DNA of 64,000 nt from Christensenellales bacterium (GCA_040767925.1 JAXGNN010000001.1:1344921-1408920), one strand, 5' to 3'. Shown: positions 3,895 through 50,874, counted from the first letter of the stretch. Numbers and translations are program-made. Notes: a model not told the origin generated them from the letters alone.

Positions 3895-3977
3895 GGGCGG
3901 ATATGGAATCCGCCCCTGCAAAATCCCCGCCGAAGCGGCGTTCTTGATTTTCAATTATCCATTGTCAATTGTCAATT
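3895..3977 (-). repeat. Modular intergenic repeat, full copy (locus 1), abutting the noc stop
   Basis: On the + strand: GGGCGGAT-ATGGA-ATCCGCCC, CTGCAAAATCCC, CGCCG-AAG-CGGCG, TTCTTGATTTTCAATTATCCATTGTCAATTGTCAATT. The last heptamer overlaps the TAA of noc (3976-3978). Confidence 0.9.
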
Positions 3978-4815
3978 ACTTATGTCTCGTCACCCGGATG
4001 CTGATGTCCACGCCGTCCTCGCGGTCGGCCTGCTCGACCTCGACCACCATGCCGGATTCGCGCAGCGCCTTCACCGCGTCGTTGATGGTGTTCATGAAGA
4101 TGCGGTAGTCCCGCACGAGGCGGATGATCATGGGCCGGGGCTTCGCGCCGTCGGCTTTTTCATCGTAAAGGCGGTTGAGCGTCTTTTCGACGTACTGCTC
4201 GGTCTCCTTGACCGAAAGCCCCTTCTGGGCGATTTTGTCCACGAGCTCGAGGCGCGCGCGGTCGTCCGCGAGCTTCAGGAGCGCGCGGGCGTGGCGCTCC
4301 GTGAGGCGCGCGTCCACCATGGCGCTCTTCACGTCGTCCGAAAGCTTCAGAAGGCGCAGCTTGTTGGCGATGGAGGACTGGCTTTTGCCGAGCCGCTCCG
4401 CGAGCTGCTCCTGCGTGAGGTTGTAGGTTTCAAGCAGGGACGCGTAGCACTGCGCCTCCTCGAGGAAGTGCAGGTCCTCGCGCTGCAGGTTCTCGATGAG
4501 CGCCATGACCGCCGAGGTCTCGTCCATGATTTCCTGCTGGATGATGCAGCTCACCGTCTCCATCCCGAGGCTCGTCGCCGCGCGCAGGCGGCGCTCCCCC
4601 GCGACCAGCTCGTACTCGTCGCCCACCCGCCTGACGAGCAAAGGCTGCAGCAGGCCCACCTGCCGGATGGACTGCGCGAGCTCCGCGATGCTCTCCTCGT
4701 CGAAGGTTGTCCGGGGTTGATAGGGGTTCGGGCGGATCTTTGCGACGGGCAGCTCCACGAGCAGCTTGACTGCCTCGGGGCTCCTGTTTTCCTTTAAGAA
4801 GTCGAATACGGGCAT
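3976..4815 (-). CDS. noc: Nucleoid occlusion protein Noc (ParB-family paralogue)
   Basis: ParB N-terminal box LLQPLLVRRVGDEYELVAGERRLRAA, HTH QEQLAERLGKSQSSIANKLRLLKL, and a Noc-type C-terminus RDYRIFMNTINDAVKAL. Sits directly downstream of rsmG as in Bacillus. GGGAGGA RBS. Confidence 0.85.
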   Translation of the reverse strand: MPVFDFLKENRSPEAVKLLVELPVAKIRPNPYQPRTTFDEESIAELAQSIRQVGLLQPLLVRRVGDEYELVAGERRLRAATSLGMETVSCIIQQEIMDETSAVMALIENLQREDLHFLEEAQCYASLLETYNLTQEQLAERLGKSQSSIANKLRLLKLSDDVKSAMVDARLTERHARALLKLADDRARLELVDKIAQKGLSVKETEQYVEKTLNRLYDEKADGAKPRPMIIRLVRDYRIFMNTINDAVKALRESGMVVEVEQADREDGVDISIRVTRHK

Positions 4816-4923
4816 ATGTGCGTCCTCCCTGATTGCGTGTTCTCCAACGGCCGTGATATTCCTGCCCTGCGGCGATATTCGCGCTTTTTCCCGAAAAGAA
4901 GTGATTTTCTTTTTCCGCGGCGC

Positions 4924-5610
4924 TCACAGGGGATTTTTCGCGGCGGCTCCCGCCTTTCGCGGATATTCCTTCGGCGTGGGCGCAAGCTTTTTCGCCTCGA
5001 TCACATGGCGCTCGCCCCACGGAACTTCAAATTTGAGCGTCTGCGCCTCGAGGCGCAGAATCTTCGCGGCGCGCGCGGCCGACGCGAGTTCCTCGTCCGC
5101 CTTCGGCCCTTTGTACATGAGGGAAACGCCGCCTGTTTTCAGGAGGGGCGCCGTCCACTCCATCAGGGCGGACGCTCCCGCGACCGCGCGCGTGAGGGCA
5201 ACGTCGTATTGCCCGCGGTGCGCGGGGTCCCGCCCCGCGTCCTCCGCCCGCGCGTGCACGAGCGCCGCCTGAAGGTTCAATTCCTCCAGCAGGGCCTTTA
5301 GGAAAACGAGGCGCTTATTGAGCGAGTCGAGCAGCGTCATCGAGAGGTCGCCCCGCATGATGAGCAGGGGCACGCCCGGGAAGCCCGCGCCCGTGCCCAC
5401 GTCGATGCAGCGCGCGCCCTCTTTGACGCGCGCCACGGGCAAAAGGCTGTCCGCGAAGTGCTTGGCGACAACTTCCTCCGCGCCCGTGATGGCGGTGAGG
5501 TTCATCCTTTCGTTCCAGGCGGCGAGCAGCGTGAAGTAGCGCGCGAATTTTCCAATTTGCGCCCCGTCCGCCTCCGGTATGTATCGATGGATCAGGCCTT
5601 CTATCTCCAT
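4924..5610 (-). CDS. rsmG: 16S rRNA (guanine527-N7)-methyltransferase RsmG/GidB
   Basis: WNERMNLTAI, KHFADSL, DVGTGAGFPGVPL motifs. Synteny mnmG-rsmG-noc. Confidence 0.93.
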   Translation of the reverse strand: MEIEGLIHRYIPEADGAQIGKFARYFTLLAAWNERMNLTAITGAEEVVAKHFADSLLPVARVKEGARCIDVGTGAGFPGVPLLIMRGDLSMTLLDSLNKRLVFLKALLEELNLQAALVHARAEDAGRDPAHRGQYDVALTRAVAGASALMEWTAPLLKTGGVSLMYKGPKADEELASAARAAKILRLEAQTLKFEVPWGERHVIEAKKLAPTPKEYPRKAGAAAKNPL

Positions 5611-5668
5611 TTCGTCAATTCCGCATTTCCTATATTGTTTTTCGGGGAAGGGACGCCGGCGGTTTCGC

Positions 5669-5689
5669 GGGCGGATATGGAATCCGCCC
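5669..5689 (-). repeat. Solo hairpin module of the repeat family (locus 2)
   Basis: GGGCGGAT-ATGGA-ATCCGCCC. Confidence 0.85.
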
Positions 5690-5841
5690 TGCTGTCCCCG
5701 ACAAGGCGGAGAGAGGCGTCCTTAAGGGTTCCGGGAACGGTCCCACCCTTTCCCCTTCCTTCATCGCCCCATGCAGCGTTCTGTACGGCGCGCCCACATC
5801 GCCCTCCTGCCCGCGGAACCGTCCCCGGGCGCGGATTCCCT

Positions 5842-5955
5842 CCCGCGGCGGCGTTCCCCGATTGTCAATTGTCAATTCTCAATTGTCAATTTCCCCTTCC
5901 CGCCCGCGGCGGCGTTCCCCGATTGTCAATTGTCAATTCTCAATTGTCATTTTCC
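5842..5955 (-). repeat. Two tandem 61-bp copies of the heptamer module (subfamily 2), overlapping the mnmG 3' end
   Basis: CCGCGGCGGCGTTCCCCGATTGTCAATTGTCAATTCTCAATTGTCA occurs twice (period 61: 5860 and 5921). Confidence 0.9.
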
Positions 5956-7819
5956 TCAAGTAAATCGTCAGCACCGCGATGTCCGAAGGCGACACGCCCG
6001 AGATGCGCCCCGCGCGGCCGAGGCTCTCGGGCTTCCTTGCCGCGAGCTTCTGGCGCGCCTCAAGGCGCAAGCCTTCCATCGCCATGTAGTCGAGGTCCGG
6101 GGGGAGGGGGGTGTCCTCCAGCTCGCGAAAGCGGCCGACGAGCGCCTTCTCCTTCTCGATGTAGCCCTCGTAGCGCGCGTCGAGCGTGACGGCCTCCGCC
6201 GCCTCGCGGCCGATGTTCGGCAGAAGATCCGGATAGAGCGCGAGGAGGTCCGTGTAGCCGACGCCGCGCCTTCGAAGCAGATCGAACAGCCTGACGCCCG
6301 AGGCGGGCGCGGACTCGCCCCGCGCCTCGAGCAGCCGCCGCAGCGCCTCCCCGGGCGCGACGGACGCGCCGAGCGCGGCCTTCGCCCGGGCGGCCTCCTC
6401 CCGCTTTCGCATCAGGCGGGAATAGCGCTCGTCGGAAACAAGCCCCGTCCGCCTGGAAAGCTCGGTCAGCCGCTCGTCCGCGTTGTCCTGCCGGAGCAGC
6501 AGCCGGTATTCCGCGCGGGAGGTCATCATCCGGTAGGGTTCGTTGGTGCCTTTGCCCGTGAGGTCGTCGCACAGCACGCCGATGTACGCGTCCGCGCGCG
6601 AGAGGAGAAGGGGCGGCTCGCCCCGAAGGTACAGGGCGGCGTTGATCCCCGCGTAAAGCCCCTGCGCCGCGGCCTCCTCATAGCCGGAGCTGCCGTTGAT
6701 CTGCCCCGCGAAGTAAAGGCCCTCTATCTCGCGGGAACGAAGCGCAGCGTCGAGCGCCGTGGGGTCGATGCAGTCGTACTCGATGGCGTAGCCGTAGCGC
6801 GTGACCTGGCAACGTTCAAGCCCTGGTATCGTATGGAGCATGTCCCTCTGCACGTCGGCGGGGAGCGAGGTGCTCATGCCCTGCACGTATTTCTCGTCGG
6901 TCGAGCGCCCTTCCGGCTCGATGAAGAGCTGGTGGCGCTCCTTGTCGGCGAAACGGGTGATCTTATCCTCGATGGAGGGGCAGTAGCGCGTGCCCGTCGC
7001 GCGGATGAGGCCGGAGTACATGGCGCTGCGCGCGATATTCGCGCGGATGACCGCGTGGGTCGCCTCGTTCGTATAGGTGAGGTAGCACGGGACCTGCTCC
7101 CGTTCAAGCTCCCCCGTGAGGAAGGAGAAGCGCGGCTGCGGCTCGTCCCCGAACTGCGGCTCCATTTTTGCATAATCGAGCGTGCGGCCGAGCACGCGCG
7201 CAGGCGTGCCCGTCTTGAAGCGGCGAAGCGCGAAGCCGATCTTTGCGAGCGCCGCGGAAAGCCCTTCCGCGCGCATCAGGCCGGAGGGCCCGCTCTCCCA
7301 TACGCAATCGCCGATGAGCACGCGGCTCTTTAAATACACGCCCGTCGCGACGACGACGGCGCGGCAGGGGATCCTCTCCCCCGCGCTCTTCATGCCGCCC
7401 GAGAGGCGTATGCCGATGACGCGGCCGTTTTCCACGTCGATATGGGCGCACTCGCCCTGCATCAGGGTCAGGCGCTCCTCGGTTTCGAGCGCGCGCTTCA
7501 TGCGCGCGTGATATTCCCGCTTGTCGATCTGCGCGCGAAGGGAGTGCACGGCGGGGCCCTTGCCCGTGTTGAGCATGCGCACCTGAAGGCAGGTGTCGTC
7601 CGCGGCGAGGCCCATCTCGCCGCCGAGCGCGTCGATTTCGCGCACGAGGTGCCCCTTCGACGTGCCGCCCACCGAGGGGTTGCACGCCATGAGGGCGACC
7701 GCGTCGAGGTTGAGCGTCAGGCACAGCGCAGTAAGCCCCATGCGCGATGCGGCAAGCGCGGCCTCAAGCCCTGCGTGCCCTGCTCCCAGTATCGCGATGT
7801 CGTATCCCGTTTCCGCCAC
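5933..7819 (-). CDS. mnmG: tRNA uridine-5-carboxymethylaminomethyl modification enzyme MnmG/GidA
   Basis: GTG start with GGAGGG RBS. FAD motif YDIAILGAGHAGLEAA; CNPSVGG, GQINGSSGYEEAAAQG. The last 5 codons (MTIEN) and the TGA lie inside the repeat. Confidence 0.95.
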   Translation of the reverse strand: MAETGYDIAILGAGHAGLEAALAASRMGLTALCLTLNLDAVALMACNPSVGGTSKGHLVREIDALGGEMGLAADDTCLQVRMLNTGKGPAVHSLRAQIDKREYHARMKRALETEERLTLMQGECAHIDVENGRVIGIRLSGGMKSAGERIPCRAVVVATGVYLKSRVLIGDCVWESGPSGLMRAEGLSAALAKIGFALRRFKTGTPARVLGRTLDYAKMEPQFGDEPQPRFSFLTGELEREQVPCYLTYTNEATHAVIRANIARSAMYSGLIRATGTRYCPSIEDKITRFADKERHQLFIEPEGRSTDEKYVQGMSTSLPADVQRDMLHTIPGLERCQVTRYGYAIEYDCIDPTALDAALRSREIEGLYFAGQINGSSGYEEAAAQGLYAGINAALYLRGEPPLLLSRADAYIGVLCDDLTGKGTNEPYRMMTSRAEYRLLLRQDNADERLTELSRRTGLVSDERYSRLMRKREEAARAKAALGASVAPGEALRRLLEARGESAPASGVRLFDLLRRRGVGYTDLLALYPDLLPNIGREAAEAVTLDARYEGYIEKEKALVGRFRELEDTPLPPDLDYMAMEGLRLEARQKLAARKPESLGRAGRISGVSPSDIAVLTIYLRKMTIEN

Positions 7820-8022
7820 AGCCTCAATCCCTCCGATGAACGCAAGGTCGATTATACCAAAACCGGAAGCATCTTGAAAGGGGGTATTTCCCGTTAGGAG
7901 AATTATTTCCCAAAGAACGGATTTCTACCCTCCCGCGCGCGGAACTTGCGTCAAGATTGTGGAAAATTTCCCCAGAAACAGGCATATTTCGCGCGGATCG
8001 CGCCGATTTGCGCAGGACCGCT

Positions 8023-8051
8023 TTACAGGAGGGCCATGCGTCTGTATAATG
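8023..8051 (+). promoter_or_regulatory. Candidate sigma-A promoter of the DMT transporter gene
   Basis: TTTACA (8023-8028), 17 nt, TATAAT (8046-8051). Confidence 0.45.
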
Positions 8052-8114
8052 AGTTGCTGTGAACCGCGCAGAACGCGCGCGCTTCTAGAAATTCTTAGAC
8101 AGGCGGAAAAGAAT

Positions 8115-9011
8115 ATGTGGTTTCCATTGTCGCTTGCCGCTCTCATCTGCTGGAGCGGGTCCGATCTTTTTGCCAAAATCGGCTGCCAGGACCCCAAGGA
8201 AAAACACAGCCACCTGAAGATGGTCATCGCCGTGGGCGCCGTGATGGGCCTTCACGCGGCGTATGAGATGCTCTTCGGCGGCGTCGTGATGACGGGCGAG
8301 GTCTTCTTGAAGTATCTGCCCGTGTCGATGCTCTACATCCTCTCGATGGCGCTCGGGTACCTCGGCCTTCGCTACATCGAGCTCTCGATCTCCTCCCCCA
8401 TCTGCAACACCTCGGGCGCGGTGGTGGCGCTCATCTACCTCCTCTCGGGCGAGCCGGTCGAAACGCCGCAGCTGATCGCGATCGGCCTCATCGGCGTGGG
8501 CGTACTGATGCTCGGCGTCGTGCAGATGACGGAGGACGAGCAGTTGCGCCTCGCCCGGCAGGAAGCCTCGAACATGAAGTATTCGAAGAGCCTCCTCGCG
8601 CTTTTCATCCCGGTCGTCTACTGCCTGCTCGACGCGGCGGGCACCTACGCGGACAGCCTCGTGCTCGAAACCCTCGACGAGAACGCCGCCAACGTCGCCT
8701 ATGAGCTGACGTTCCTCCTGTGCGGCGCCGTCAGCTTCCTCTATGTGAAGCTCGTCAAAAAAGAGAAGTTCACACTGAAGCTGGAGGCGCCCAAATACGT
8801 CGGCGCCGTGTTTGAAACGGCGGGCCAGTTCGCCTATATCTTCGCCCTTGGCGCGAACGCCATGTTCGCGGCGCCCGTGATCTCCTGCTACTGCGCGCTC
8901 TCGGTCGTGTGGAGCCGCGTGTTCCTCAAGGAAAAGCTCGGCTGGAAGCACTACGTCTGCATCGCGGGCATCATCGCCGGCATCGCCATTTTAGGCGCGT
9001 ACGACGCTTAG
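8115..9011 (+). CDS. EamA/DMT-family membrane transporter
   Basis: Start moved to ATG 8115 (MWFPLSLAALICWSGSDLFAKIG). About 10 predicted hydrophobic helices in a two-EamA-repeat layout. Confidence 0.7.
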   Translation: MWFPLSLAALICWSGSDLFAKIGCQDPKEKHSHLKMVIAVGAVMGLHAAYEMLFGGVVMTGEVFLKYLPVSMLYILSMALGYLGLRYIELSISSPICNTSGAVVALIYLLSGEPVETPQLIAIGLIGVGVLMLGVVQMTEDEQLRLARQEASNMKYSKSLLALFIPVVYCLLDAAGTYADSLVLETLDENAANVAYELTFLLCGAVSFLYVKLVKKEKFTLKLEAPKYVGAVFETAGQFAYIFALGANAMFAAPVISCYCALSVVWSRVFLKEKLGWKHYVCIAGIIAGIAILGAYDA

Positions 9012-10273: not shown

Positions 10274-10302
10274 CGTTTTCCCTCCTTTCGGGTCATGTGC
10301 GG

Positions 10303-10462
10303 GGGGACGGGGGTAATTGACAATTGACAATTGATAATTGACAATCGGGGAACGCCGCCGCGGGCGGGGACGGGGGTAATTGACAATTGACAATTGATAA
10401 TTGACAATCGGGAACGCCGCCGCGAGCGGGAAATTTTGTAGGGGCGGATTCCATATCCGCCC
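10303..10462 (+). repeat. Repeat locus 3: two 63-bp heptamer modules plus one hairpin module
   Basis: GGGGACGGGGGTAATTGACAATTGACAATTGATAATTGACAATCGGGGAACGCCGCCGCG twice (10314 and 10377), then TTTTGTAG-GGGCGGAT-TCCAT-ATCCGCCC (10442-10462). Confidence 0.9.
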
Positions 10463-10560
10463 GCCGTCCTTTCCCCGACGCGGGCGGGGGCAGTTCTGCT
10501 TGTTCGGGGTTCCGGATCTGTCGGCGCTTGCGGCTCCAGCGCCCCCTGCGCCCAAAATTC

Positions 10561-10586
10561 ATTGTCAATTGTCAATTATCAATTGC
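10561..10586 (-). repeat. Isolated heptamer block forming the 3' end of the MocA-like gene
   Basis: ATTGTCAATTGTCAATTATCAATTGC. This is the inverted complement of the blocks at 10314-10410. Confidence 0.85.
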
Positions 10587-11149
10587 TTCAGCTCTTCCGC
10601 GCCGTCCACGTCGGCGAGCTCGCCCGGGTCGGCGACCTGGTGAAGGGCGAGGGCGTCCTCGTGCCTTCTTATGACCTCGCTGCCGCCGCTGTCCCCCGCA
10701 AGGGCGCAGAGCTCGTCGAAGAAACGCCCGGGGAAGATCGCGGGGTTGCCGCGCCTCTGCCCGTTCCCCAGCGCGCGGATGACATGGGGATCCTTCTCAA
10801 ACGCGTCGACGAGGGCCAAGACGCTCTCCCGCGTGAGCCGCGGCTGATCCGCCACCATGAACATGGCGGCGTCTGCGCCGAGCGCCCTCGCGCGCTCAAG
10901 CCCCATGCGGATCGTACGGGAGACGCCCTCCTCCGGGCGGTCGTTCTTCACGGCGAAAAAGCCGCGCCTCTCGGCCTCCGCGAGGATCTCCCCGCTGCCG
11001 GAGACGACGATGGTCGCGCGAAGCTTCTCCGCAGGCACGGCGTCGAGCGCGCGCGCGTAGAGCGGCTTCCCCCGGTAGGGCGCGAGGAGCTTGTTCGAGC
11101 CGAAGCGCCTCCCGGCGCCCGCGGCCATCAATATGCATACGAGATTCAT
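10565..11149 (-). CDS. MobA/MocA-like molybdenum-cofactor nucleotidyltransferase (YgfJ type)
   Basis: ILMAAGAGRRFGSNKLL, VADQP, GNPAIFP motifs. ATGA overlap with the upstream hydantoinase stop. The last 6 codons (QLIIDN) and the TGA are repeat sequence. Confidence 0.75.
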   Translation of the reverse strand: MNLVCILMAAGAGRRFGSNKLLAPYRGKPLYARALDAVPAEKLRATIVVSGSGEILAEAERRGFFAVKNDRPEEGVSRTIRMGLERARALGADAAMFMVADQPRLTRESVLALVDAFEKDPHVIRALGNGQRRGNPAIFPGRFFDELCALAGDSGGSEVIRRHEDALALHQVADPGELADVDGAEELKQLIIDN

Positions 11150-12510: not shown

Positions 12511-12580
12511 GCTTTCCTCGCGTCTGTTTTTCCAATGGGATTGCGGCGCGCGGGCCGGGGCCCGGCGGCGGGCGCCCCGC

Positions 12581-14350: not shown

Positions 14351-14436
14351 ATCCTCACCTCCGCTTGATGATCCGATGAAATCCACGGCTGTCAAAGAAG
14401 ATTATAGCGCTTTTTGCCTGTATCTACCATGTTTTT

Positions 14437-18005: not shown

Positions 18006-18782
18006 ATGAATGCATCCGATACGATAACGGCGGCCAAGGCCGCGGGTTATGAGGAGCCCATGATCCGCACGGTGGGGCTCGCCAAGAGCTTCGGCAAACT
18101 CGAGGTGCTTCGCGGCGTCGACGAGCAGGTCGCGCGCGGCGAGGTCGTCTCCGTCATCGGCCCGTCGGGCGGCGGAAAAAGCACGTTTTTGCGCTGCCTG
18201 AACCTGCTCGAGGAGCCGACGGGCGGCAGGATCTTCTTCGAGGGCGTCGACATCACCGGCAAAGGGGTGGACATCAACCTGCACAGGCAGAAAATGGGCA
18301 TGGTGTTTCAGCAGTTCAACGTCTTTGCGAACCTGTCCGTGAAGGAGAACATCACCTTGGCGCCGGTGCTGCTCAAAAAGAAAACGAAACCCGAGGCCGA
18401 CGAGCTGGCCCGGGAGCTGCTCGCCCGCGTCGGCCTCACCGACAAGATTGACGAGCGGCCGGGCCGCCTCTCCGGCGGGCAGAAGCAGCGCCTCGCCATC
18501 GTGCGCGCGCTCGCGATGGAACCGGACGTGATGCTTTTCGACGAGCCCACGAGCTCCCTCGACCCCGAGATGGTGGGCGAGGTGCTCGCGGTCATCCGCG
18601 ACCTCGTCGCCGAGGGCATGACGACCGTCATCGTCACGCACGAGATGGGCTTCGCGCGCGAAGTCTCCGACCGCGTACTCTTCATGGACGAGGGTCTCAT
18701 CGTCGAGAGCGGCCCGCCCGCGGAGCTGTTCTTCCGCCCAAGGATGGAGAGGACAAAGGAGTTTTTGAGCAAAGTATTATAA
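18006..18782 (+). CDS. Polar amino-acid ABC transporter ATP-binding protein
   Basis: Walker [10 protein letters not shown], signature [15 protein letters not shown], Walker B MLFDEPTS. Confidence 0.93.
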
Positions 18783-19122
18783 ACAATTGACAATTGACAA
18801 TGGATAATTGACAATCAGAAACGCCGCTTTGCGGGGATTTTGCAGGGGCGGATTCCATATCCGCCCCGTTCAACAATTGACAATGGATAATTGACAATCA
18901 GGAACGCCGCTTCGGCGGGGATTTTGCAGGGGCGGATTCCATATCCGCCCCGTTCAACAATTGACAATGGATAATTGACAATCAGGAACGCCGCTTCGGC
19001 GGGGATTCTGTAGGGGCGGATTCCATATCCGCCCTGTTCAACAATTGACAATGGATAATTGACAATCAGGAACGCCGCTTCGGCCGGGATTTTACAGGGG
19101 CGGATTCCATATCCGCCTTGTT
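18781..19122 (+). repeat. Four head-to-tail full copies of the modular repeat (90+84+84+84 bp)
   Basis: Unit: AACAATTGACAATGGATAATTGACAATCAGGAACGCCGCTTCGGCGGGGATTTTGCAGGGGCGGATTCCATATCCGCCCCGTTC. Copies at 18781-18870, 18871-18954, 18955-19038, 19039-19122. The array starts on the TAA of the ABC ATPase gene. Confidence 0.95.
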
Positions 19123-19215
19123 CTGTCCCCGCGAAATGATTGACGGCAGGCATCGGCAGGGACGGCTTTCGCGTTAAGGGCGAAGGCCGTATTTGGCCGT
19201 TTTTTCCCTCGCCCC

Positions 19216-23548: not shown

Positions 23549-23622
23549 GCGGGTGTAGCTCAGTGGCAGAGCTTCGGCTTCCCAAGCCGACTATGTGGGT
23601 TCGATTCCCATCACCCGCTCCA
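23549..23622 (+). tRNA. tRNA-Gly (anticodon CCC)
   Basis: Manual cloverleaf: acceptor GCGGGTG/CACCCGC, D arm GCTC-AGTGGCA-GAGC, anticodon arm TCGGC-TTCCCAA-GCCGA, T arm GTGGG-TTCGATT-CCCAT, discriminator U73, encoded CCA. Confidence 0.88.
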
Positions 23623-24947: not shown

Positions 24948-24980
24948 GACGCCTTACAAATGAGATTATTGCATAAAATA

Positions 24981-25069
24981 AAGGCGGATATGGAATCCGC
25001 CCTTGTAATACCCCCGCCGCAGCGGCGTTCTTTTTATTGTCAATTGTCAATTGTCAATTGTTAATTAAT
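24981..25069 (-). repeat. Modular repeat, full copy (locus 5), abutting the upp stop
   Basis: GGCGGAT-ATGGA-ATCCGCC .. CGCCG-CAG-CGGCG .. ATTGTCAATTGTCAATTGTCAATTGTTAATT. The upp TAA is at 25070-25072. Confidence 0.9.
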
Positions 25070-25699
25070 TTACTTCGTCCCGAACAGCCTGTCGCCCGCG
25101 TCGCCGAGGCCCGGCACGATGTAGCCGTGGGAGTTGAGGTGGTCGTCGATGGCCGCGACGAAGATGTCCACGTCCGGGTGCGCCTTCTGCACCGCGGCGA
25201 TGCCCTCGGGCGCGGCGATGATGTTGACGAGCTTGACGTTCTTGCAGCCCGCCTTCTTCACGATATCGATGCCCTCCACGGCGGAGCCGCCCGTCGCCAG
25301 CATGGGATCGACGATGATGATGTCGCGCTCGCTGACGTCCGGCGGGAGCTTGCAGTAATAATCCACGGGAGCGAGCGTTTCCGGGTCGCGGTAGAGGCCG
25401 ATATGGCCCACCTTCGCGGCGGGGATGAGGTTGAGCATGCCGTCGACCATGCCGAGGCCCGCGCGCAAAATGGGGACGATGCCGAGCTTTTTGCCCGCGA
25501 GCACCTTGGTCGTCGCGGGGCCGATGGGCGTTTCCACCTGCGTTTCCTCGAGGGGGAGATCGCGCGTCGCCTCGTAGGTTAGAAGCGTCGCAAGCTCCTC
25601 GACAAGCTCCCGGAACTCCTTGGAGCCGGTGGACTTGTCCCGCAGATGCGTCAGCTTGTGCTGCACGAGGGGATGGTTGATGACGTGTACGTTGTTCAT
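25070..25699 (-). CDS. upp: Uracil phosphoribosyltransferase
   Basis: Start at ATG 25699 (AAGGAG RBS). [49 protein letters not shown]. Confidence 0.95.
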
Positions 25700-25744
25700 A
25701 AAAACTCCTTTCGCGGTATCGGAAGATTGCAAAAATAAAGAGGC

Positions 25745-27269: not shown

Positions 27270-27357
27270 GCGGGCGGATATGGAATCCGCCCCTACAAAA
27301 ACCCCGCCGCAGCGGCGTCTCTTTATTGTCAATTGTCAATTATCAATTGTCAATTGC
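27270..27357 (-). repeat. Modular repeat, full copy (locus 6), abutting the prfA stop
   Basis: GGGCGGAT-ATGGA-ATCCGCCC CTACAAAAACCC CGCCG-CAG-CGGCG .. ATTGTCAATTGTCAATTATCAATTGTCAATTGC. The prfA TGA is at 27358-27360. Confidence 0.9.
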
Positions 27358-28425
27358 TCATTCCGCGTTCGATAATTTCTCACTCTGCTCCTTGAGGATA
27401 AGCGCCTCGATGACCTCGTCCATGTCCCCGTCGAGAAAGGCCTCGAGCTTGTAGAGCGTGACGCCCACGCGGTGGTCGCTCACGCGCCCCTGCGGGAAGT
27501 TGTAGGTGCGGATGCGCTCGCTGCGGTCTCCGCTGCCCACCTGCGCGCGGCGCGCGCCCGCCTCGGCCTCCGCCGCGCGGGCCTGATAGAGCTCGAGAAG
27601 GCGGCTTTTGAGCACGCGCATGGCCTTCTCCCTGTTCTTGTGCTGGCTCCGCTCGTCCTGGCACTGCACGATGAGGCCCGTAGGGAGGTGCGTGATGCGT
27701 ATGGCGCTCTCGGTTTTGTTGACGTGCTGGCCGCCCGCGCCGCCGCTGCGGTAGGTGTCGATCGAAAGCTCGTCGGGGTTGATGTCCACCTCGACGTCCT
27801 CGGCCTCCGGCAGCACCGCGACCGTGGCCGCGCTCGTATGGATGCGCCCCTGGGACTCCGTCTCCGGCACGCGCTGCACGCGGTGAACGCCGCTCTCGTA
27901 TTTCATGCGGGAGTAGGCGCCGCGCCCCTGCAGGCTCAGCACGACCTCCTTCACGCCGCCGATTTCGGTGTAGTTCTCGTACATCAATTCGCTTTTGTAG
28001 CCGTGGCGCTCCGCGTAGCGCTGGTACATGCGAAGCAGGTCCGCGCCGAAGAGGGAGGCTTCCTCGCCGCCCGTGCCCGCGCGGATTTCGATCATCACGT
28101 CCCTCTCGTCGTTGGGGTCCTTCGGGAGGAGCATCAGGCGGAGCTTTTCCACAAGCGCCTTCTCCTTCCCCTGGAGCGCGTCGAGCTCCTCGCGCGCGAG
28201 TTCCCGCAGTTCGGGCTCGAGCTTGCCCTCGAGCAGGGCGCGGCACTCCCCGATGTCACGCGTCAGCGCCGCGTATTCGTCGTACGCCCCAGCGATATCT
28301 ATAAGCCCCGCGTGCTCGCGCGCGAACGCGCGGAACCTCTGCTGGTCCGCGATCACCTCGCTTTGGGACATGAGCCGCGCGAGCTCGTCGCTGCGCGCCT
28401 TAATCGATTGGAGTTTCTCCAGCAT
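27358..28425 (-). CDS. prfA: Peptide chain release factor 1
   Basis: [16 protein letters not shown] (GGQ motif), PETES region. Confidence 0.97.
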
Positions 28426-42150: not shown

Positions 42151-42198
42151 GCCGAAGGGGCGGCTCCCGCGGCGCTTAAAACAGCGTCGCCCGTCGCC

Positions 42199-42280
42199 GG
42201 GCGGATATGGAATCCGCCCCTAAATGGACACCGACATGGGCGCGAACATCAAAACGGGGGTGGATATGGTATCCGCCCCC
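42199..42280. repeat. Two direct copies of the hairpin module only (locus 7)
   Basis: GGGCGGAT-ATGGA-ATCCGCCC (42199-42219) and GGGGGTGGAT-ATGGT-ATCCGCCCCC (42256-42280). Confidence 0.85.
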
Positions 42281-42306
42281 GCCGGTTTTATCCTGAGTTG
42301 CCTCAA

Positions 42307-43932
42307 TTATCTCAATTCCCGCTCGTAGACCACCCTGCCGTCCACCATGGTCATGACCGGGAGGATATCCCGTATTTTTTCCACGTCGCAGGTGAAGATG
42401 TCTTCGTCCAGCACGATGAGGTCGGCGCAGTGGCCGGGCCTGATGCGGCCTTTGACATTCTCCAGGAACTGCGCGTAAGCCGAGCCCTCGGTGAAAAGGT
42501 CGATCGCGAGCGGCACGTCGAGGCATTCCTCCGGGAAGAAGCCGGCCTCGGGCGCGCCCGTGGTGTCCTTGCGGGTGACGGCGCAGTAGATGCCGAGGAA
42601 CGGGTTGATCTCCTCCACAGGCCCGTCGGAGCCGAATGCCATGCCCACGCCCTTCTCGTGCATGGTTTTAAAGGGGAGGAACCAGCGGTTCATCTCCATC
42701 GGGAAGCGCGCCGCGACGGTGTAGGGGTCGGTGTTCAGGAAGATCGGCTGCACGTGGGTGATGACGCCCAGTTGCGCCGTGCGCTCGATGAGGGGCACGT
42801 CGAGGCACTGGTAATGGACGACGGCGTGGCGCAGGCGGTTTTCGCCGTCCGTCAAAACTTTTTCATAGGAATCGAGCACCATTTCGATGGCGCGGTCGCC
42901 CAGCGCGTGCGTGATGACCTGCATGCCGTTCCCGACGGCCAAGCCGACCATGGAGTCGATCAGCTCGTTGCTCATCGTCTCGGTGCCATAGTTGCCGGGA
43001 TCGTCGAGATAGCCCCCGCGCACCACGGCCGTGCGGCCGCCGAGAGAGCCGTCCTTGAAAAGCTTCAAGGGGCCGCGCGTGAGCATGCCGCCGTATTTGC
43101 CGGTTTTGTGCTCGCCCTTAAGATACGCCCTGAATTCGTCGGGGCTGTGGAAGCAGAGCTGGTGCTCGTAGCGAACGGGGGCCTTTCCCTCGTCGTAGAT
43201 CTCGTGCATGAGGCGGAAGAACTCCGCGTCCTCCATATAGGGGTTCATGCCGATGTCGTTGGACTGCACGGAGGTCAGGCCGTGCGAGACGGCGAACTCC
43301 ATCGCCCGGAGGATCCACGCCTTGAATTCCTCGCGCTCGGGCGGCTTCACCGCGCCCTGGATCGGATAGATGGCGCCTTCCGCGAAATAGCCGCTGGGGA
43401 AGCCGTCCTCCTCGATCCCGAAAAAGCCGTCCTTGTACTGGGGGGCGCCCGGGCCGAGGCCGACGGCCTCGATAACTTTGGTGTTGGCGGCGGCGACGTG
43501 GACGCAGGCCCGGATCAGGACCACCGGGATTTCCGTGGAAATGCGGTCGACGTCGTGCCGGTTGGGGTAACGCTTCTCCCCCGGGGGAAAGAGGTCCTGG
43601 TTCCAGCCGGAGGCGATCATGCCGTTTTTGACCGCGGCGGGATGCTCTTCGATGAACCTGCGGCAGCGCGCCACGATTTCGTCGATGGAACGGCAGCCGC
43701 GAAGGTCCGCCTGGTTGAGGCGCTGTGCCACCATCGAGAGGTGCAGGTGGGAATCGTTCAGGCCGGGGATCACGGTCCTGCCTCCGCAGTCGTAAACGTC
43801 GCATCCGCCCGCGCGCGCGAGAATCTCCTCGTCGGAACCCACGCTTTTGATGACGCCGTCCTCGATCAGCATCGCCTCGGCGAACCGGTCGCGGCCGAGA
43901 TAGACCTTCCCGTTGATGATTGCCCTCTTCAT
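42307..43932 (-). CDS. Amidohydrolase (Amidohydro_3 / YtcJ-like)
   Basis: PGLNDSHLHL, long lid insertion, HALGDRA, HVQPIF. Confidence 0.8.
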   Translation of the reverse strand: MKRAIINGKVYLGRDRFAEAMLIEDGVIKSVGSDEEILARAGGCDVYDCGGRTVIPGLNDSHLHLSMVAQRLNQADLRGCRSIDEIVARCRRFIEEHPAAVKNGMIASGWNQDLFPPGEKRYPNRHDVDRISTEIPVVLIRACVHVAAANTKVIEAVGLGPGAPQYKDGFFGIEEDGFPSGYFAEGAIYPIQGAVKPPEREEFKAWILRAMEFAVSHGLTSVQSNDIGMNPYMEDAEFFRLMHEIYDEGKAPVRYEHQLCFHSPDEFRAYLKGEHKTGKYGGMLTRGPLKLFKDGSLGGRTAVVRGGYLDDPGNYGTETMSNELIDSMVGLAVGNGMQVITHALGDRAIEMVLDSYEKVLTDGENRLRHAVVHYQCLDVPLIERTAQLGVITHVQPIFLNTDPYTVAARFPMEMNRWFLPFKTMHEKGVGMAFGSDGPVEEINPFLGIYCAVTRKDTTGAPEAGFFPEECLDVPLAIDLFTEGSAYAQFLENVKGRIRPGHCADLIVLDEDIFTCDVEKIRDILPVMTMVDGRVVYERELR

Positions 43933-44199: not shown

Positions 44200-44227
44200 T
44201 TGCAATTCTCAAAGCGCTATGTATAAT
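44200..44227 (+). promoter_or_regulatory. Candidate promoter of the liv operon (implies a ~250-nt leader)
   Basis: TTGCAA (44200-44205), 16 nt, TATAAT (44222-44227). Confidence 0.35.
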
Positions 44228-44487
44228 AGAGTCATGTTGCGGCCGAAATATGGTACATGCGTTTCGGCGGCGCACCCATCGGGCTTATAGCCATCTGAGA
44301 GCCGGCGAACGGCACCCCGAAAAACTGTTTTTTAGACATATGCGGTAAATGATCGTTTTGCGGCAAACTGCGGAATGTATGCGACGGCGAGAAGCATCCG
44401 GATGGAATGCTTCTGAGAGGCGCGGAGCTTCGCCTTATGACCGACTGATTGCGCGTTTTTAGATATCACAAAAAAGGAGGAAAACCA

Positions 44488-45654: not shown

Positions 45655-45740
45655 TTAGTTGCTAAACGGTTCTTTGAAGCAGGGAAGACTACATCCTTAG
45701 TTTTCCCTGCTTCAATCATAACGGTGAGGAGGAGAACACC

Positions 45741-46625: not shown

Positions 46626-46642
46626 GAAAAAGGGGCGAACAT

Positions 46643-47545
46643 ATGGATTCTATGTATCTTCAAGGCATACTGATCCTGGTGGGGATCAACCTCATGGCCG
46701 TGCTGGGGTTGTGCCTGCTCACCGGCTTCACCGGCCTTTTCTCCTTCGGGCACGCGGGCTTCATGGCCATCGGCGCGTACGCGTCGGCCTTCATGACGGT
46801 GAAACTGGGCTGGCCCTTCATCCCCGCCCTTTTGGTGGGCGCCCTGGCGGCGGCCCTCATCAGCGCCCTCATCGGCAAGGTGACGCTGAACTTAAAGGGC
46901 GACTACTTCTGCATCGCGACGCTGGGCTTCGGCGAGGCGATGCGGCTCATCCTCGAAAACGTCCGGTATTTCGGCGGCGCGCGCGGATGGCCCGGCATCC
47001 CTTCGCACACGTCGCTTCTCAACGTGGTCCTCATCAACATCGTCGCCGTATTCCTTCTTGCGAACCTCAAGCGCTCGCGGCACGGCAGGAACATGATCGC
47101 CGTGCGGGAGGAGGAACTCGCCTCGCAGGTGGTGGGGATCGACGTGTTCCGCTACAAGCTGATTTCGCTCATGATCAGCGCCGCCTACGCGGGCGTCGCC
47201 GGCGGCCTCATGGGGCATTACATGACCTTCCTCCAGCCCGCCATGTTCAGCCTGGTGAAATCCACCGAGCTGACCATCATCGTCATCTTCGGCGGCCTAG
47301 GCAGCATATCGGGCAGCATCCTCGGGACGCTCGTGCTCACGGCCCTGCCGGAAGCGCTCCGGACCTTCTCGAACTGGCGCCTCGTCATCTACGGCCTGTC
47401 CGTCGTCGTCATCATGATCTCCCGGCCCAGCGGCCTCATGGGCGGGTACGAGCTGACCCTGGGCAGCATGAGAAAGCTCATCGCCAAATTGAGGCGCAAA
47501 AGAACAGGCTCTCCCGAGGACGGGGAGGGAGGTGAAACCGCGTGA
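46643..47545 (+). CDS. livM: Branched-chain amino-acid ABC permease LivM
   Basis: TGFTGLFSFGHAGFMAIGAY. Confidence 0.9.
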   Translation: MDSMYLQGILILVGINLMAVLGLCLLTGFTGLFSFGHAGFMAIGAYASAFMTVKLGWPFIPALLVGALAAALISALIGKVTLNLKGDYFCIATLGFGEAMRLILENVRYFGGARGWPGIPSHTSLLNVVLINIVAVFLLANLKRSRHGRNMIAVREEELASQVVGIDVFRYKLISLMISAAYAGVAGGLMGHYMTFLQPAMFSLVKSTELTIIVIFGGLGSISGSILGTLVLTALPEALRTFSNWRLVIYGLSVVVIMISRPSGLMGGYELTLGSMRKLIAKLRRKRTGSPEDGEGGETA

Positions 47546-48306
47546 ATAAGCTTGAGTTGAAAAACCTGACGAAGACTTTCGGCGGCCTCACTGCGGTGGG
47601 CAACGTCGATTTTGAGGTGCCCGCGGACCGCATCAGCGGGCTCATCGGCCCGAACGGCGCCGGGAAGACCACGATTTTCAACCTGATCACCGGCGTATAT
47701 AAGGTGACGGAAGGCCAGGTCCTCTTCGAGGAGCAGGACATCACCGACAAGCCCCCCTATATGATCGCCCAGCACGGCATCACGCGGACCTTTCAGAATA
47801 TCCGGCTCTTCAAGAAGCTGACCGTTTATGAAAACGTGCTGGTCGCCTGCCACGACAACGCGAACTATACGCTCGCGGAATCCCTGCTCCGGCTGCCGCG
47901 CTGCAGCAGGCAGGAAAAGCTGCTCAAAGAGAAGAGCGAAACCCTCCTCGAGATCATGGGGCTGCAGAACAGGAAGGATCTCGTCGCCAACAACCTTCCG
48001 TACGGTCTGCAGCGGCGGCTTGAAATCGCCCGGGCGCTCGCGCTCAACCCAAGGCTCCTTCTGCTCGACGAGCCCGCCGCCGGCATGAACCCGGACGAGA
48101 CGGCGCAGCTCATGCGGCTCATCCTCGAAATCAAGGAGAAGTTCGGGCTCACCATACTCATCATCGACCACCATATGGACCTGGTGATGGGCGTGTGCGA
48201 GAAGATCATGGTGCTCAACTTCGGGTGCAAACTGGCTGAAGGCACCCCCCAGGAAGTGCAGAACAACCCGAAGGTTGTCGAGGCCTATCTGGGAGTGGAG
48301 GGATAA
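47542..48306 (+). CDS. livG: Branched-chain amino-acid ABC ATP-binding protein LivG
   Basis: GTG start in a GTGA overlap with livM. GPNGAGKTT, LPYGLQRRLEIARAL, LLLDEPAAG. Confidence 0.93.
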   Translation: MNKLELKNLTKTFGGLTAVGNVDFEVPADRISGLIGPNGAGKTTIFNLITGVYKVTEGQVLFEEQDITDKPPYMIAQHGITRTFQNIRLFKKLTVYENVLVACHDNANYTLAESLLRLPRCSRQEKLLKEKSETLLEIMGLQNRKDLVANNLPYGLQRRLEIARALALNPRLLLLDEPAAGMNPDETAQLMRLILEIKEKFGLTILIIDHHMDLVMGVCEKIMVLNFGCKLAEGTPQEVQNNPKVVEAYLGVEG

Positions 48307-48309
48307 GCG

Positions 48310-49017
48310 ATGTTAAAGATTGAGAATCTGAACATTTACTACGGCGGCATCCACGCCATACGCGGGGTCGACCTCGAGATCAACCAGGGCGAGATCGTGA
48401 CCATCATCGGCTCCAACGGCGCCGGGAAGTCCACGCTGCTCAACGCGATCTCCGGCTTTTTGAAGAGCAAGCAGGGTTCGATTTCCTATAAGGGAGAGAA
48501 ACTGCCGCTGAGCCCCAGCAGGGTCGTGAAGAAGGGCATCTGCCAGATCCCCGAGGGGAGGCTGGTGTTCGCGAACCTGAGCGTCGCGGAGAACCTGATG
48601 CTCGGCGCGTTCCTTCGAAAGGACCACAAGAAGATCAGGGAGGATCTCGAGGGCGTGTATTCCCTGTTCCCCAGGCTGAAGGAGAGGGAAAAGCAGCCCG
48701 CGGGCACCTTGAGCGGGGGCGAGCAGCAGATGCTCGCCATCGGCCGCGGCCTGATGAGCGATCCCGAGCTGATGCTACTCGATGAACCCTCGCTCGGCCT
48801 TTCCCCCATCCTGATCCAGACGGTGTTCGAGATCATCGTCAACATCCGGGAGATGGGCAAAACCATCCTCCTCGTCGAGCAGAACGCCTACAAGGCGCTC
48901 TCGGTCGCGGACCGGGCGTACGTGCTCGAGCAGGGCAAGATCATCCTCGAGGGCAACGCCCGCGACATTTCCAACGATCCGAGCATCAAGCAGGCGTATC
49001 TCGGCGCCGGCAAATAA
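48310..49017 (+). CDS. livF: Branched-chain amino-acid ABC ATP-binding protein LivF
   Basis: GSNGAGKST, LSGGEQQMLAIGRGL, LLDEPSLGL. Confidence 0.93.
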   Translation: MLKIENLNIYYGGIHAIRGVDLEINQGEIVTIIGSNGAGKSTLLNAISGFLKSKQGSISYKGEKLPLSPSRVVKKGICQIPEGRLVFANLSVAENLMLGAFLRKDHKKIREDLEGVYSLFPRLKEREKQPAGTLSGGEQQMLAIGRGLMSDPELMLLDEPSLGLSPILIQTVFEIIVNIREMGKTILLVEQNAYKALSVADRAYVLEQGKIILEGNARDISNDPSIKQAYLGAGK

Positions 49018-49028
49018 TCTTCATTCCT

Positions 49029-49056
49029 GCCGTTTCCGGGCTTGCCCGGGGACGGC
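49029..49056 (+). terminator. Nested GC hairpin after livF
   Basis: GCCGT-TT-CCGGGC-TT-GCCCGG-GG-ACGGC. No T tract, so termination is uncertain. Confidence 0.3.
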
Positions 49057-49118
49057 ATCCGTCTGCCCCGGCGCGCAAGCGGCCCGGCGGCGCCCACTAA
49101 CCACAGGGGAGGAGAACT

Positions 49119-50789
49119 ATGCCCATTCGCGCATTCGACGAGATCCGGTCCATTACCGAAAAGCTGGTGGCCATCCCCAGCGTCGTCCGGGAGCCGGGCG
49201 GAGAGACCAAATGCGCCGAGGCCATCGCCGGCTACTATCGGCAATTGCCGTATTTTCAGCGGCACCCCGAGCGGGTGCGCGTTTTCAAGACCCACGAGGA
49301 GGCGTTCCTTCGCCACTCGACCTACGCCTACGTCAAGGGGACCGGCGCGCCTTCGGCTTCCGCGCGGACGGTGATTCTGATCGGCCACATCGACACGGTG
49401 GGCGTCGAGGATTACGGCAAGGACCCGACCCTCGCCTTCGATCCCGCGCGCATCCCGGAAGTCCTCCGGCGGATGCGGGTTTCCCCGGAGGTCCTTTCCG
49501 ACATCGAGAGCGGGGAATACCTGTTCGGCCGGGGCGTGCTCGACATGAAGTCCGGCGTCGCGGTGCACATGTACCTGATCAAATACTTTTCCGAGCACCC
49601 GGAGGAACTCTGCGGCAACCTGATCGCCGTCGCCGCGTGCGACGAGGAGGAGGGCTCCGCGGGCATCATCTCCGCGCTGGACGAATTGAACGAGCTTCGC
49701 CTGCGCGAGGGCTTCGAGTATGTGGCCTGCGTCAACGCCGACTATACGACCGGCTATTATCCCGGCGACCCGGGGCGCTATGTGTATTTGGGGAGCGTGG
49801 GAAAGCAGCTTCCCGCGGCCTACGTGCTGGGCAAGGAGACGCACGTGGGCCAGCCCTTCGGCGGGTTCGACCCCAACCTGCTCACGGCGGAAATCACGCT
49901 CCGCACCTCCCTCAACGCCGAACTCTGCGACAGCGCGCACGGCGAAACGAGCGTACCCCCCGTTTCCCTCAAGCAGGCCGACTTCAAGGACGAATACACG
50001 GTGCAAACGCCGCTCAACGCCTACGCCTACTATAACGTCTTCAGCTATGTTTCCTCCCCCGTGCAGGTCATGGAGCGCTTCCTGCGGATCGTGGAGGAGG
50101 CCTTCGACGCGACGATCGGGCGCATGAACGCGCAGTACCAGAGCTACTGCGACAAGGTGGGCATCCCCTTCGCCCCGCTGCCCTGGAAGCGCAGGGTCTA
50201 TACATGGGAGCGCCTTTGCCGCGAGCTTGCGGCGGAGCACCCGGGGTTCGAAGAACATATCGCCGGCTTCGCCGCCGAACTCAACCGGCGCAACCCGAAG
50301 ATGGACCTTCGCCTGTTCAGCGTGCGGGTCATCGAGGAGGCGTGGGGCTTCATGGCCGACAAGAGCCCCGCCGCGGTGCTGTTCTTCGGCTCGAGCTTCT
50401 GCTCGAGGGTCGAGGTTTCCGGCAGGAACGCGCGCGAGCGGGAGCTGATGGAGGCGCTGCGCCTTGCGGTGGACGAGGTTTCTCCCGCGTGCCCCGATCC
50501 CATCCAGATCAAGATGTTCTATCCGTATATCGCCGACGCGAGTTTCCTCGCCCTCAGCGACAGCCCGGAGGACATTTCCGCCATGCTGCGCAACATGCCC
50601 GCGCACGGCACGAAATACCGTTTCCCCATGGAAAAAATCCTGGCGATCAACGTACCTACGGTCAACATCGGCGCGCAGGGCTGGGACGGGCACCAGGTAG
50701 CCGAGCGGGTGCACATGCGCTACACCTTCGAGACCGTGCCCGAACTCTCTTACCGCGTGATCCGCCGCCTGCTCTCCCCAAGGGATTAG
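49119..50789 (+). CDS. M20/M25/M40-family metallohydrolase, RocB-like
   Basis: LIGHIDTVG, GRGVLDMKSG, ACDEEEGSAG. ~550 aa, like RocB. Confidence 0.75.
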   Translation: MPIRAFDEIRSITEKLVAIPSVVREPGGETKCAEAIAGYYRQLPYFQRHPERVRVFKTHEEAFLRHSTYAYVKGTGAPSASARTVILIGHIDTVGVEDYGKDPTLAFDPARIPEVLRRMRVSPEVLSDIESGEYLFGRGVLDMKSGVAVHMYLIKYFSEHPEELCGNLIAVAACDEEEGSAGIISALDELNELRLREGFEYVACVNADYTTGYYPGDPGRYVYLGSVGKQLPAAYVLGKETHVGQPFGGFDPNLLTAEITLRTSLNAELCDSAHGETSVPPVSLKQADFKDEYTVQTPLNAYAYYNVFSYVSSPVQVMERFLRIVEEAFDATIGRMNAQYQSYCDKVGIPFAPLPWKRRVYTWERLCRELAAEHPGFEEHIAGFAAELNRRNPKMDLRLFSVRVIEEAWGFMADKSPAAVLFFGSSFCSRVEVSGRNARERELMEALRLAVDEVSPACPDPIQIKMFYPYIADASFLALSDSPEDISAMLRNMPAHGTKYRFPMEKILAINVPTVNIGAQGWDGHQVAERVHMRYTFETVPELSYRVIRRLLSPRD

Positions 50790-50853
50790 GGGACGGGATT
50801 CGTTTGCTTGCGGGGCAGCGGGGACGGTCCTGCCCTTCTCCCTGTGGGCAGCC

Positions 50854-50874
50854 GGGCGGATATGGAATCCGCCC
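50854..50874. repeat. Solo hairpin module (locus 8)
   Basis: GGGCGGAT-ATGGA-ATCCGCCC followed by CTAC. Confidence 0.85.

Follow-up and report, generated by a model that had tools for sequence, protein, structure and literature searches.

We analysed a 64-kb stretch of the genome of a Christensenellales bacterium (GCA_040767925.1, JAXGNN010000001.1:1344921-1408920; the window, with positions counted from its first base), in which GC content ranges from 58 to 70% and several genes run directly into copies of a non-coding composite repeat of about 90 nt. The composite consists of three modules: A, an array of 3–5 sense-oriented heptamers of the AATTGAC type; S, a 5-bp GC hairpin between an A-run and a T-run; and R, a GTAG-tagged large hairpin with an 8–9-bp stem of the repetitive extragenic palindrome (REP) kind. 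Their order is polar, with 3–4 heptamers plus AAT followed after ~8 nt by S and after a further ~10 nt by R. An earlier note on this DNA had described a modular family with fixed polarity at gene 3' ends, and this description was borne out.

Pattern searches of the window allowing up to two mismatches found 12 copies of the large hairpin GGGCGGAT-N5-ATCCGCCC compared to 0.07 expected, and 34 matches to (AATTGAC)2 compared to 0.14 expected. None of 100 shuffled windows reached 12 large hairpins. All hairpins and heptamer matches were intergenic, and there was no hairpin copy to the right of 50874, such that the 12 copies and their confinement to the left of 51 kb agreed with the earlier note in every position. 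Tandem Repeats Finder detected period-7 arrays of 3.6–4.7 copies at all six loci for which heptamer runs had been reported, though a seventh array, the degenerate AATTGAG-AT-AATTGAG (~42296-42318, minus strand), had been overlooked. The same program detected higher-order tandems of 84 nt (3.9 copies, 18790-19117), 61 nt (2 copies, 5836-5955) and 63 nt (2 copies, 10303-10430), showing that composite copies amplify locally in tandem. Nine copies with all three modules, one of them from another metagenome-assembled genome (MAG; L034, where L-numbers label genome stretches or contigs fetched from other genomes, metagenomes or viral sets), were colinear over ~90 nt, sharing module order and spacing and averaging 81% identity. 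This colinearity shows them to be, as judged by alignment, paralogues of one composite element rather than look-alikes.

Arrays and stop codons in the window

Genes running into sense arrays were all verified by Pfam (Table 1), which supported the identities given to the upstream genes in the earlier note, except that the gene called mocA-like encodes a MobA-like nucleoside triphosphate (NTP) transferase. All seven gene-following arrays are sense-oriented, and three of these provide the stop codon. Those of mnmG and the mobA-like gene begin 17 nt before the stop, which is the TGA of the third heptamer (protein tails: MnmG ..KMTIEN*, MobA-like ..QLIIDN*), while the degenerate array is the source of the TAA of an amidohydrolase gene (42307..43932, minus strand). 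The noc TAA shares 2 nt with the first heptamer, and the stop-to-array gap is +2 nt for the ABC ATPase gene and prfA and +3 nt for upp. The claim that a heptamer block starts on or within ~3 nt of the stop codon at all six loci thus held for orientation, but not for the distance at mnmG and the mobA-like gene. A full element in the opposite orientation had also been reported at the third locus, and it is present there; its two plus-strand modules (10315-10408) are the only ones that follow no gene, lying upstream of the start (10273) of a minus-strand amidohydrolase gene and facing the minus-strand array of the mobA-like gene.

Gene-following arrays lie on the minus strand at six loci (five perfect and the degenerate one) and on the plus strand at one (18.8 kb), with the two strands interleaved. 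Polarity therefore tracks the gene and not the chromosome, and an explanation by replication strand is unlikely.

Most window arrays place stops in all three frames of the sense strand and none on the other, which had led to the suggestion of a universal stop cassette. Three-frame stops on at least one strand occurred in 69% of 68 period-7 arrays, compared to 72% expected for random AT-matched heptamers, and the AGATACA and GAATGCA families contain no stops. The three-frame property thus stands for most arrays but is not enriched over random AT-rich heptamers, and stop content is therefore no evidence of design, leaving orientation alone as informative; we rejected the designed stop cassette on these grounds.

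Table 1 Genes followed by arrays and repeat features in the window
Feature	Coordinates	Strand	Remarks
Native noc terminator	3851-3876		beyond the REP
REP hairpin GCAG-GGGCGGAT-TCCAT-ATCCGCCC	3894..3916	-	
Small hairpin S, CGCCG-CTT-CGGCG then GGGATTTTG	3928..3940	-	
Heptamer array AATTGAC AATTGAC AATGGAT AATTGAA AAT	3947..3977	-	overlaps TAA of ParB/Noc-like gene by 2 nt
ParB/Noc-like gene	3976..4815	-	Pfam
REP hairpin in mnmG-rsmG gap	5669..5689	-	
Second array (5861-5891) and two small hairpins	5836..5921	-	61-nt tandem duplicate of array and S, no REP
Heptamer array	5922..5952	-	TGA of unit 3 (5933-5935) is the mnmG stop
MnmG gene	5933..7819	-	Pfam
Two array and S modules (63-nt tandem), then GTAG-REP (10442-10462)	10303..10462	+	inverted relative to array 10561-10584
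Heptamer array alone	10561..10584	-	TGA of unit 3 (10565-10567) terminates the MobA-like gene
MobA-like NTP transferase gene	10565..11149	-	Pfam
ABC ATPase gene	18006..18782	+	Pfam
Four tandem 84-nt units (array, S and REP)	18783..19122	+	begin 2 nt past TAA of ABC ATPase gene
Composite: array 25036-25066, S 25015-27, REP 24982-25002	24980..25066	-	begins 3 nt past upp stop
UPRTase (upp) gene	25070..25732	-	Pfam
Composite: array 27325-27355, S 27305-17, GTAG-REP 27272-92	27270..27355	-	2 nt past prfA stop
RF1 (prfA) gene	27358..28425	-	Pfam
Degenerate array (~42296-42318), then two REP hairpins (42258-78, 42199-219)	42199..42318	-	
Solitary GTAG-REP	50854..50874	-	downstream of terminator of DUF362 gene

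Elsewhere in the window, a tRNA (23549-23619, plus strand) lies just upstream of tuf and a thiamine pyrophosphate (TPP) riboswitch (57 bits) at 54057-54156 (plus strand). Three parS sites at 60590-60682, TGTTTCACATGAAACA followed twice by TGTTTCACGTGAAACA, are contained in a 37-bp tandem repeat and cluster as a ParB loading site ~56 kb away from the noc/parB-like gene.

Empty and filled orthologous sites

Orthologous loci in relatives were reached via homologues of uracil phosphoribosyltransferase (UPRTase, encoded by upp) and RsmG. The UPRTase of the window is 80–93% identical to proteins from uncultured Clostridia and Christensenellaceae-like MAGs. In one lineage (L124-126 and L130-131), the ends of prfA, upp, noc and mnmG were all empty: prfA and sua5 overlap by ATGA, with the ribosome-binding site (RBS) of sua5 within prfA, mnmG and rsmG are 19 nt apart, and ordinary terminators lie 4–26 nt past the stops of noc and upp. 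The mnmG-rsmG junction was also empty in L133-135, and across empty relatives the two genes are separated by 4–19 nt or overlap. Sites filled with the AATTGAC family were found at prfA, upp and mnmG in L121-123 and L132, with MnmG ending in ..ETIDN* in L132 compared to ..KMTIEN* in the window. Comparing orthologous intergenic regions, as the earlier note had proposed, thus revealed presence/absence differences at all four gene ends. At noc, the window and the empty L130 have their stop at an identical codon position, and beyond the insert the native terminator is kept; the composite at prfA sits upstream of sua5, and that at upp is followed by a bidirectional tuf/upp terminator.

Since sites filled in the window are empty in relatives, this comparison shows the composite to be, at the level of sequence, an insertion. 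The preserved stop and terminator of noc, together with the splitting of genes that are coupled in relatives, indicate a cassette that was dropped either into the space separating a stop codon from its terminator or between coupled genes. The comparison of filled with empty sites represents a clean natural experiment on a REP cassette landing on stop codons, one that splits translationally coupled genes (prfA/sua5 and mnmG/rsmG) and changes the final codons of housekeeping proteins.

These sites also bear on whether the arrays could have arisen in place, as microsatellite-type expansions with no mobility involved, produced by slippage during replication (a process said to prefer 7-nt units). 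Unit number does vary between orthologous upp sites, with four units in the window and about one in L121, and in many prokaryotes the most frequent long simple repeats are heptanucleotide ones according to Mrazek 2007 as quoted in PMC4679880. However, no seed heptamer is present at the empty sites, and the same heptamer, with the same unit variants and accompanied by S and R modules, is found at seven unlinked loci and in other genomes, which makes slippage very improbable.

Similarly, the elements could be a family of intrinsic terminators, alike through convergent evolution or gene conversion, as would fit the description of S as a terminator-like hairpin with a U-tract. In minimum free energy (MFE) folds, S is bracketed and lengthened by pairing between the A- and U-runs, and when we applied a terminator-like rule (a GC-rich stem directly before a run of at least five U in 8 nt), one S (27305-27317, minus strand) and two REP hairpins passed in sense orientation. 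Most copies of S failed this rule, its stem is only 5 bp long and the T-run after it is not conserved, while native noc and upp terminators persist downstream and inserts lie within operons that are translationally coupled in relatives. The terminator description is therefore weaker than proposed, and we consider a terminator family a highly improbable origin. The arrays themselves also fold: because CAATTG is palindromic, an array has 6/7 identity with its reverse complement (e.g. 18785-18815), which yields a weak CAAUUG/CAAUUG hairpin in RNA folds.

Some junctions are occupied by other repeats. A different heptamer family (TAGTGAA/TAGCTAA) abuts the stops of both prfA and upp in L127-129, and in another Clostridia genome the mnmG-rsmG gap (~320 nt; L256, 2150-2470) is packed with unrelated GTAG/CTAC REPs and contains no heptamers, and is therefore a recurrent landing site. 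An ancient array whose heptamer turned over genome-wide was also entertained and rejected, as only two sites are shared, and this reading is weakened by the L256 REPs at the same junction. At the prfA-sua5 junction of L127-129 (~740-965), a relative with 88% UPRTase identity, inverted TAGTGAA/TAGCTAA arrays surround ~140 nt with a called open reading frame (ORF) of 40 amino acids that has no Pfam match, a layout resembling a transposable element of the miniature inverted-repeat type (MITE) with heptamer arrays as terminal inverted repeats.

Logan contigs from short reads of this organism (L001, 6082-6111) and of a 93% relative (3' ends of L121-L123) stop inside an array or REP, indicating that the repeat breaks assemblies. 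In practical terms, assemblies from short reads break at such repeats, and annotation acquires long spurious ORFs and false C-terminal extensions from them.

REP hairpins and heptamer arrays in other genomes

The perfect 8–9-bp stem with a 5-nt loop formed in every MFE fold. Its exact 21-mer occurred in at least 119 genome stretches from many taxa in a scan of 185,579 species genomes, and the hosts among the matches listed included many Oscillospiraceae, Ruminococcus, Gemmiger and Christensenellaceae MAGs as well as some Desulfobacteraceae, Coriobacteriaceae and Bulleidia MAGs. Of 143 occurrences of the identical hairpin among these matches, nearly all had GTAG in front, and sister hairpins nearby have different stems with the same GTAGGGG foot. 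Within the window, the tetranucleotide is GTAG in four of the 12 copies, GCAG in four and something else (ACAG, ACAA, TTAG or none) in the remaining four, such that the description of the hairpin as normally preceded by GTAG or GCAG applies to eight copies and fails for four.

Genes for Y1 transposases (REP-associated tyrosine transposases, RAYT, also TnpA_REP) were detected by tblastn beside or containing the 21-mer at eight loci among the matches listed. The hairpin forms an in-frame part of the ORF in both L084 and L109, immediately after an HuH motif (..MPNHFHGIIEI-VGADSISAP..) and before the Y---NP motif, and the ORF that contains it matches Pfam Y1_Tnp (E = 5e-7). The suspected RAYT link of the REP-like hairpin was thereby corroborated in other genomes, and the odd peptides that recur in spurious ORFs (GGYGIRP, ADMESAP, VGADSIS) turned out to be REP translations, as had been suggested. 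These associations show the large hairpin to be a genuine REP, predicted to be of the kind handled by Y1 HuH transposases. Within the RAYT gene of L084 (2338-2958), the in-frame REP precedes three 24-nt partial REP copies (DSISAPNT x3) and a second, different REP (AEMDSAPT), a REP expansion inside its own transposase that keeps the reading frame.

REPs cluster head-to-tail (18846-19118; 42199/42258), and neither alternating REP pairs nor inverted REP doublets, which define bacterial interspersed mosaic elements (BIMEs) and REPINs, respectively, were found in the window. The 21-mer was also present in 25 viral contig stretches in IMG/VR, several of which have three copies, all on one strand (L260, L261, L270, L275). 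In L080 (324-466), a GAATGCA-type array that is stop-free on both strands has four REP copies, arranged as a 41-nt tandem, directly downstream of it.

We assessed whether the layout recurs by fetching 840 kb around the REP from ~100 genomes. Tandem Repeats Finder detected 60 period-7 arrays in this set, mostly of 4.4–4.9 copies and with genus-specific units (TAATGCG/TAATTCG, CAGTTGA, AATGTAG, AATGAGG, AAGAGTT, AGATACA, GAATGCA), and the layout recurs with TAATGCG, CAGTTGA, AATGAGG and further heptamers, mostly of 4–5 units, in other Oscillospirales. Counts of ORF ends are biased because an array closes whatever open frame runs into it, and upstream ORFs were hence verified with Pfam; spurious antisense ORFs arise in high-GC loci (e.g. 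L008, 5388), and the longest-ORF heuristic is too noisy above ~55% GC. ORFs ending at an array carried Pfam domains in 19 of 20 cases (GDH, S-adenosylhomocysteine (AdoHcy) hydrolase, ClpB, ProRS, L20, UppS, HPr, V-ATPase and others), and arrays started between -15 and +14 nt from the stop. Several of these domains extend to the last residues, and native C-termini are therefore intact. A GTAG REP follows 13 arrays from different genera at a distance of 26–45 nt, and in Ruminococcus one lies ~40 nt downstream.

Metagenomes scanned for AATTGAYAATTGACAAT yielded at least 120 contigs with GC contents of 29–66%. The matches listed contain 125 distinct AATTGAY arrays, with four units in 58 and five units in 38 and the same unit variants as in the window; in 55 of the 125, a sense ORF of 100 or more amino acids ends next to the array, compared to about 9 on the antisense side, and in 19 of these 55 a sense start follows directly after the array. 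Stop, array and ATG are contiguous in many of these contigs, with no REP, and such junctions also occur without a Shine-Dalgarno (SD) sequence.

TTGACA, the -35-like hexamer that had been noted within the heptamers, is indeed embedded in the arrays, and four units plus AAT constitute TTGACA-N17-GACAAT. The array might accordingly be read as a portable sigma-A promoter and the composite as an insulator, with transcription restarting past the insert and S and R acting as 5' stabilising stem-loops. Each 4-unit array scores 9–10 of 12 against the sigma-70 consensus, 31 nt is the exact minimum length for this geometry, co-directional genes flank four of six composite loci, and 7–9 promoter-like sites were found compared to 1.1–1.5 in shuffles. 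About ten metagenome contigs among the matches listed also have the array between inverted Bacteroidetes -7 boxes. On the other hand, the consensus match is an arithmetical by-product of the repeat, and equally long TAATGCG, AGATACA and AATGAGG arrays have no -35/-10 match, on which grounds a promoter reading for all heptamer families was rejected. Genes are convergent at three window loci, and in many metagenome cases among the matches listed the ATG lies 0–7 nt from the array, too near for a transcription start. We therefore regard the promoter and insulator function as distinctly improbable. In L151, L160, L182, L200, L211, L212, L233 and L236, AATTGAY arrays lie exactly between inverted TGCAAAGGTAC ... 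GTACCTTTG boxes, which match the Bacteroidetes -7 motif TAnnTTTG both ways and place the array in the -33 region of two divergent promoters.

Origin of the composite and comparison with known systems

We lean, with moderate confidence, towards a BIME-like composite of REP, small hairpin and heptamers that combines two selfish repeat classes, is copied as a unit, amplified in tandem and persists at stop codons. Copying would probably occur via a RAYT-type single-strand DNA pathway, in which the TTGAC/TTGAT-rich array may act as a landing pad or left boundary. Persistence at stops could reflect both that compact genomes leave little unoccupied DNA between stop codons and the RBS or terminator that follows, and that a sense array would close every frame within 21 nt; insertion at the stop itself or a few codons ahead of it would swap only the last residues. 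For the host, insertions may uncouple overlapping genes and add stem-loops to the 3' untranslated region (UTR), with partial termination or 3'-end protection as possible outcomes, and may present the downstream gene with a sigma-A-like TTGACA-N17-GACAAT site.

Several observations weigh against this explanation. Neither a target motif nor a target-site duplication was found upstream of 123 arrays beyond a degenerate partial unit. The search for a Y1 transposase proposed in the earlier note succeeded at the eight loci elsewhere, but tblastn found no RAYT gene in the 64-kb window, and no heptamer arrays flank the RAYT genes in the fetched loci. Arrays without a REP exist at 10561-10584 in the window and in many metagenome contigs among the matches listed, so the array may spread by some route that does not involve RAYT. 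Sense orientation is maintained where the native stop is intact and the array begins 2 or 3 nt beyond it, for which harm avoidance alone is insufficient, and the mode of 4–5 units across unrelated heptamers looks like constraint and not neutral decay. These last three features (arrays without a REP, orientation with an intact stop, and the 4–5-unit mode), which the composite does not explain, keep functional, promoter or insulator, and translation-end readings alive.

Among these, the array could be a functional cis-element of translation termination, a species-specific 3' UTR or intercistronic tag read by a trans-acting RNA- or single-stranded DNA-binding factor or by the post-termination ribosome, with REP and S merely accumulating beside it. 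Strict sense orientation and stop abutment even with an intact native stop would be expected of such an element, as would the sharp 4–5-unit mode across unrelated heptamers and phyla, and the ends of prfA and upp carry arrays of different heptamers in two lineages. Junctions of stop, array and ATG without SD in metagenomes recall the Beggiatoaceae TAACTGA repeats, for which a regulator-binding role has been proposed (PMC4679880). Nevertheless, close relatives with 90% UPRTase identity lack arrays at every site examined, indicating that arrays are dispensable, no candidate factor is known and the genes concerned are functionally unrelated. Moreover, site sharing amounts to two of four gene ends, with a chance of about 1 in 6, and hot-spot insertion as seen in L256 explains it equally well. 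We consider this function unlikely.

A broader proposal is that sense arrays of 4–5 heptamers at stops are cross-phylum gene-boundary elements, coupled in Clostridia to GTAG REPs of the subclass 2.4 type and either placed by a mechanism linked to the end of translation or read by a lineage-specific factor. Placement could involve, for example, insertion of single-strand DNA into the non-template strand where ribosome cover ends; with a lineage-specific factor, the heptamer would turn over genome-wide while the tagged genes stay the same. We put this proposal forward tentatively and think it more doubtful than probable. Heptamer arrays have been reported from the very phyla that are rich in TnpA_REP subclass 2.4, a correlation of note.

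Returning to the composite copied as a unit, its REP part is a known kind of element, while its coupling to stop-abutting heptamer runs is poorly described and is found in other gut bacteria too. REPs are among the most abundant bacterial repeats and hardly documented in Firmicutes. GTAG REPs associated with TnpA_REP subclass 2.4 (RAYT group 4) are published (PMC6006769), often donate stop codons, and have been catalogued in Proteobacteria, Cyanobacteria, Chloroflexi and PVC, with no Firmicutes in the catalogue (PMC3733652). The large hairpin resembles them in its GC-rich 8–9-bp stem, 5-nt loop and GTAG or near-GTAG at the 5' foot, and in being extragenic and multi-copy (12 in 64 kb), singly or in head-to-tail tandem. 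It differs in that a small hairpin and a heptamer array are joined to the REP in a set order and that exact GTAG precedes only four of the 12 window copies. In E. coli, ribosomes reportedly stall at REPs that lie within 15 nt of a stop codon (Liang, Rudd and Deutscher 2015).

The statement that this is not a described family consequently stands for the composite and not for its parts, since both GTAG REPs (PMC6006769) and TAACTGA repeats (PMC4679880) have been published. At gathering thresholds, Rfam matched only the tRNA and the TPP riboswitch in the whole window, and the best match in a permissive scan of 18700-19200 was RsmV with 21 bits compared to 100 required. The composite and its occurrence in Clostridia were found neither in Rfam nor in the searchable literature, and full-text searches for the exact REP, heptamer and sister-heptamer strings and for heptamer repeats in Clostridia or gut bacteria returned no relevant paper.

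Similar to enterobacterial BIMEs, for which roles in mRNA 3'-end stability and attenuation have been proposed, the composite is a mosaic of a REP and conserved non-REP motifs, is reiterated in tandem as a whole unit and occupies sites after genes or between operon genes. BIMEs comprise alternating REP pairs and motifs such as L, S, A and B, whereas REPs here are arranged head-to-tail and the extra motif is a 7-nt tandem at the stop. With MITEs such as Correia/NEMIS, RUP and ERIC, which insert beside genes and undergo co-transcription, the composite shares its short, non-autonomous nature, location near ORF ends, folding in mRNA and presence/absence polymorphism, but it has neither terminal inverted repeats nor a target-site duplication. 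Inverted array pairs are limited to some loci (the third locus of the window, L078 and L127).

The closest parallel to the arrays is the TAACTGA heptamer direct repeats of Beggiatoaceae, Cyanobacteria and Bacteroidetes, which give three-frame stops and overlap with upstream stops (MacGregor 2015, PMC4679880). Both consist of a few tandem 7-mers per set that are intergenic and strand-specific, with forward three-frame stops and a patchy phylogeny, and in both some sets overlap the upstream stop and directly precede the next start. The cyanobacterial short tandemly repeated repetitive (STRR) heptamers are a further precedent for heptamer repeats. In contrast to TAACTGA, the unit here is AATTGAC/AATTGAT (sister genomes have TAATGCG, CAGTTGA and others), the hosts belong to the Clostridia, arrays are coupled to a REP 26–45 nt downstream with the emphasis on stop rather than start codons, and insertion polarity is documented by empty sites. 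The coupling of a REP to an array of 4–5 units with a genus-varying heptamer thus links REP dissemination with the heptanucleotide repeats of Cyanobacteria, Bacteroidetes and Beggiatoaceae.

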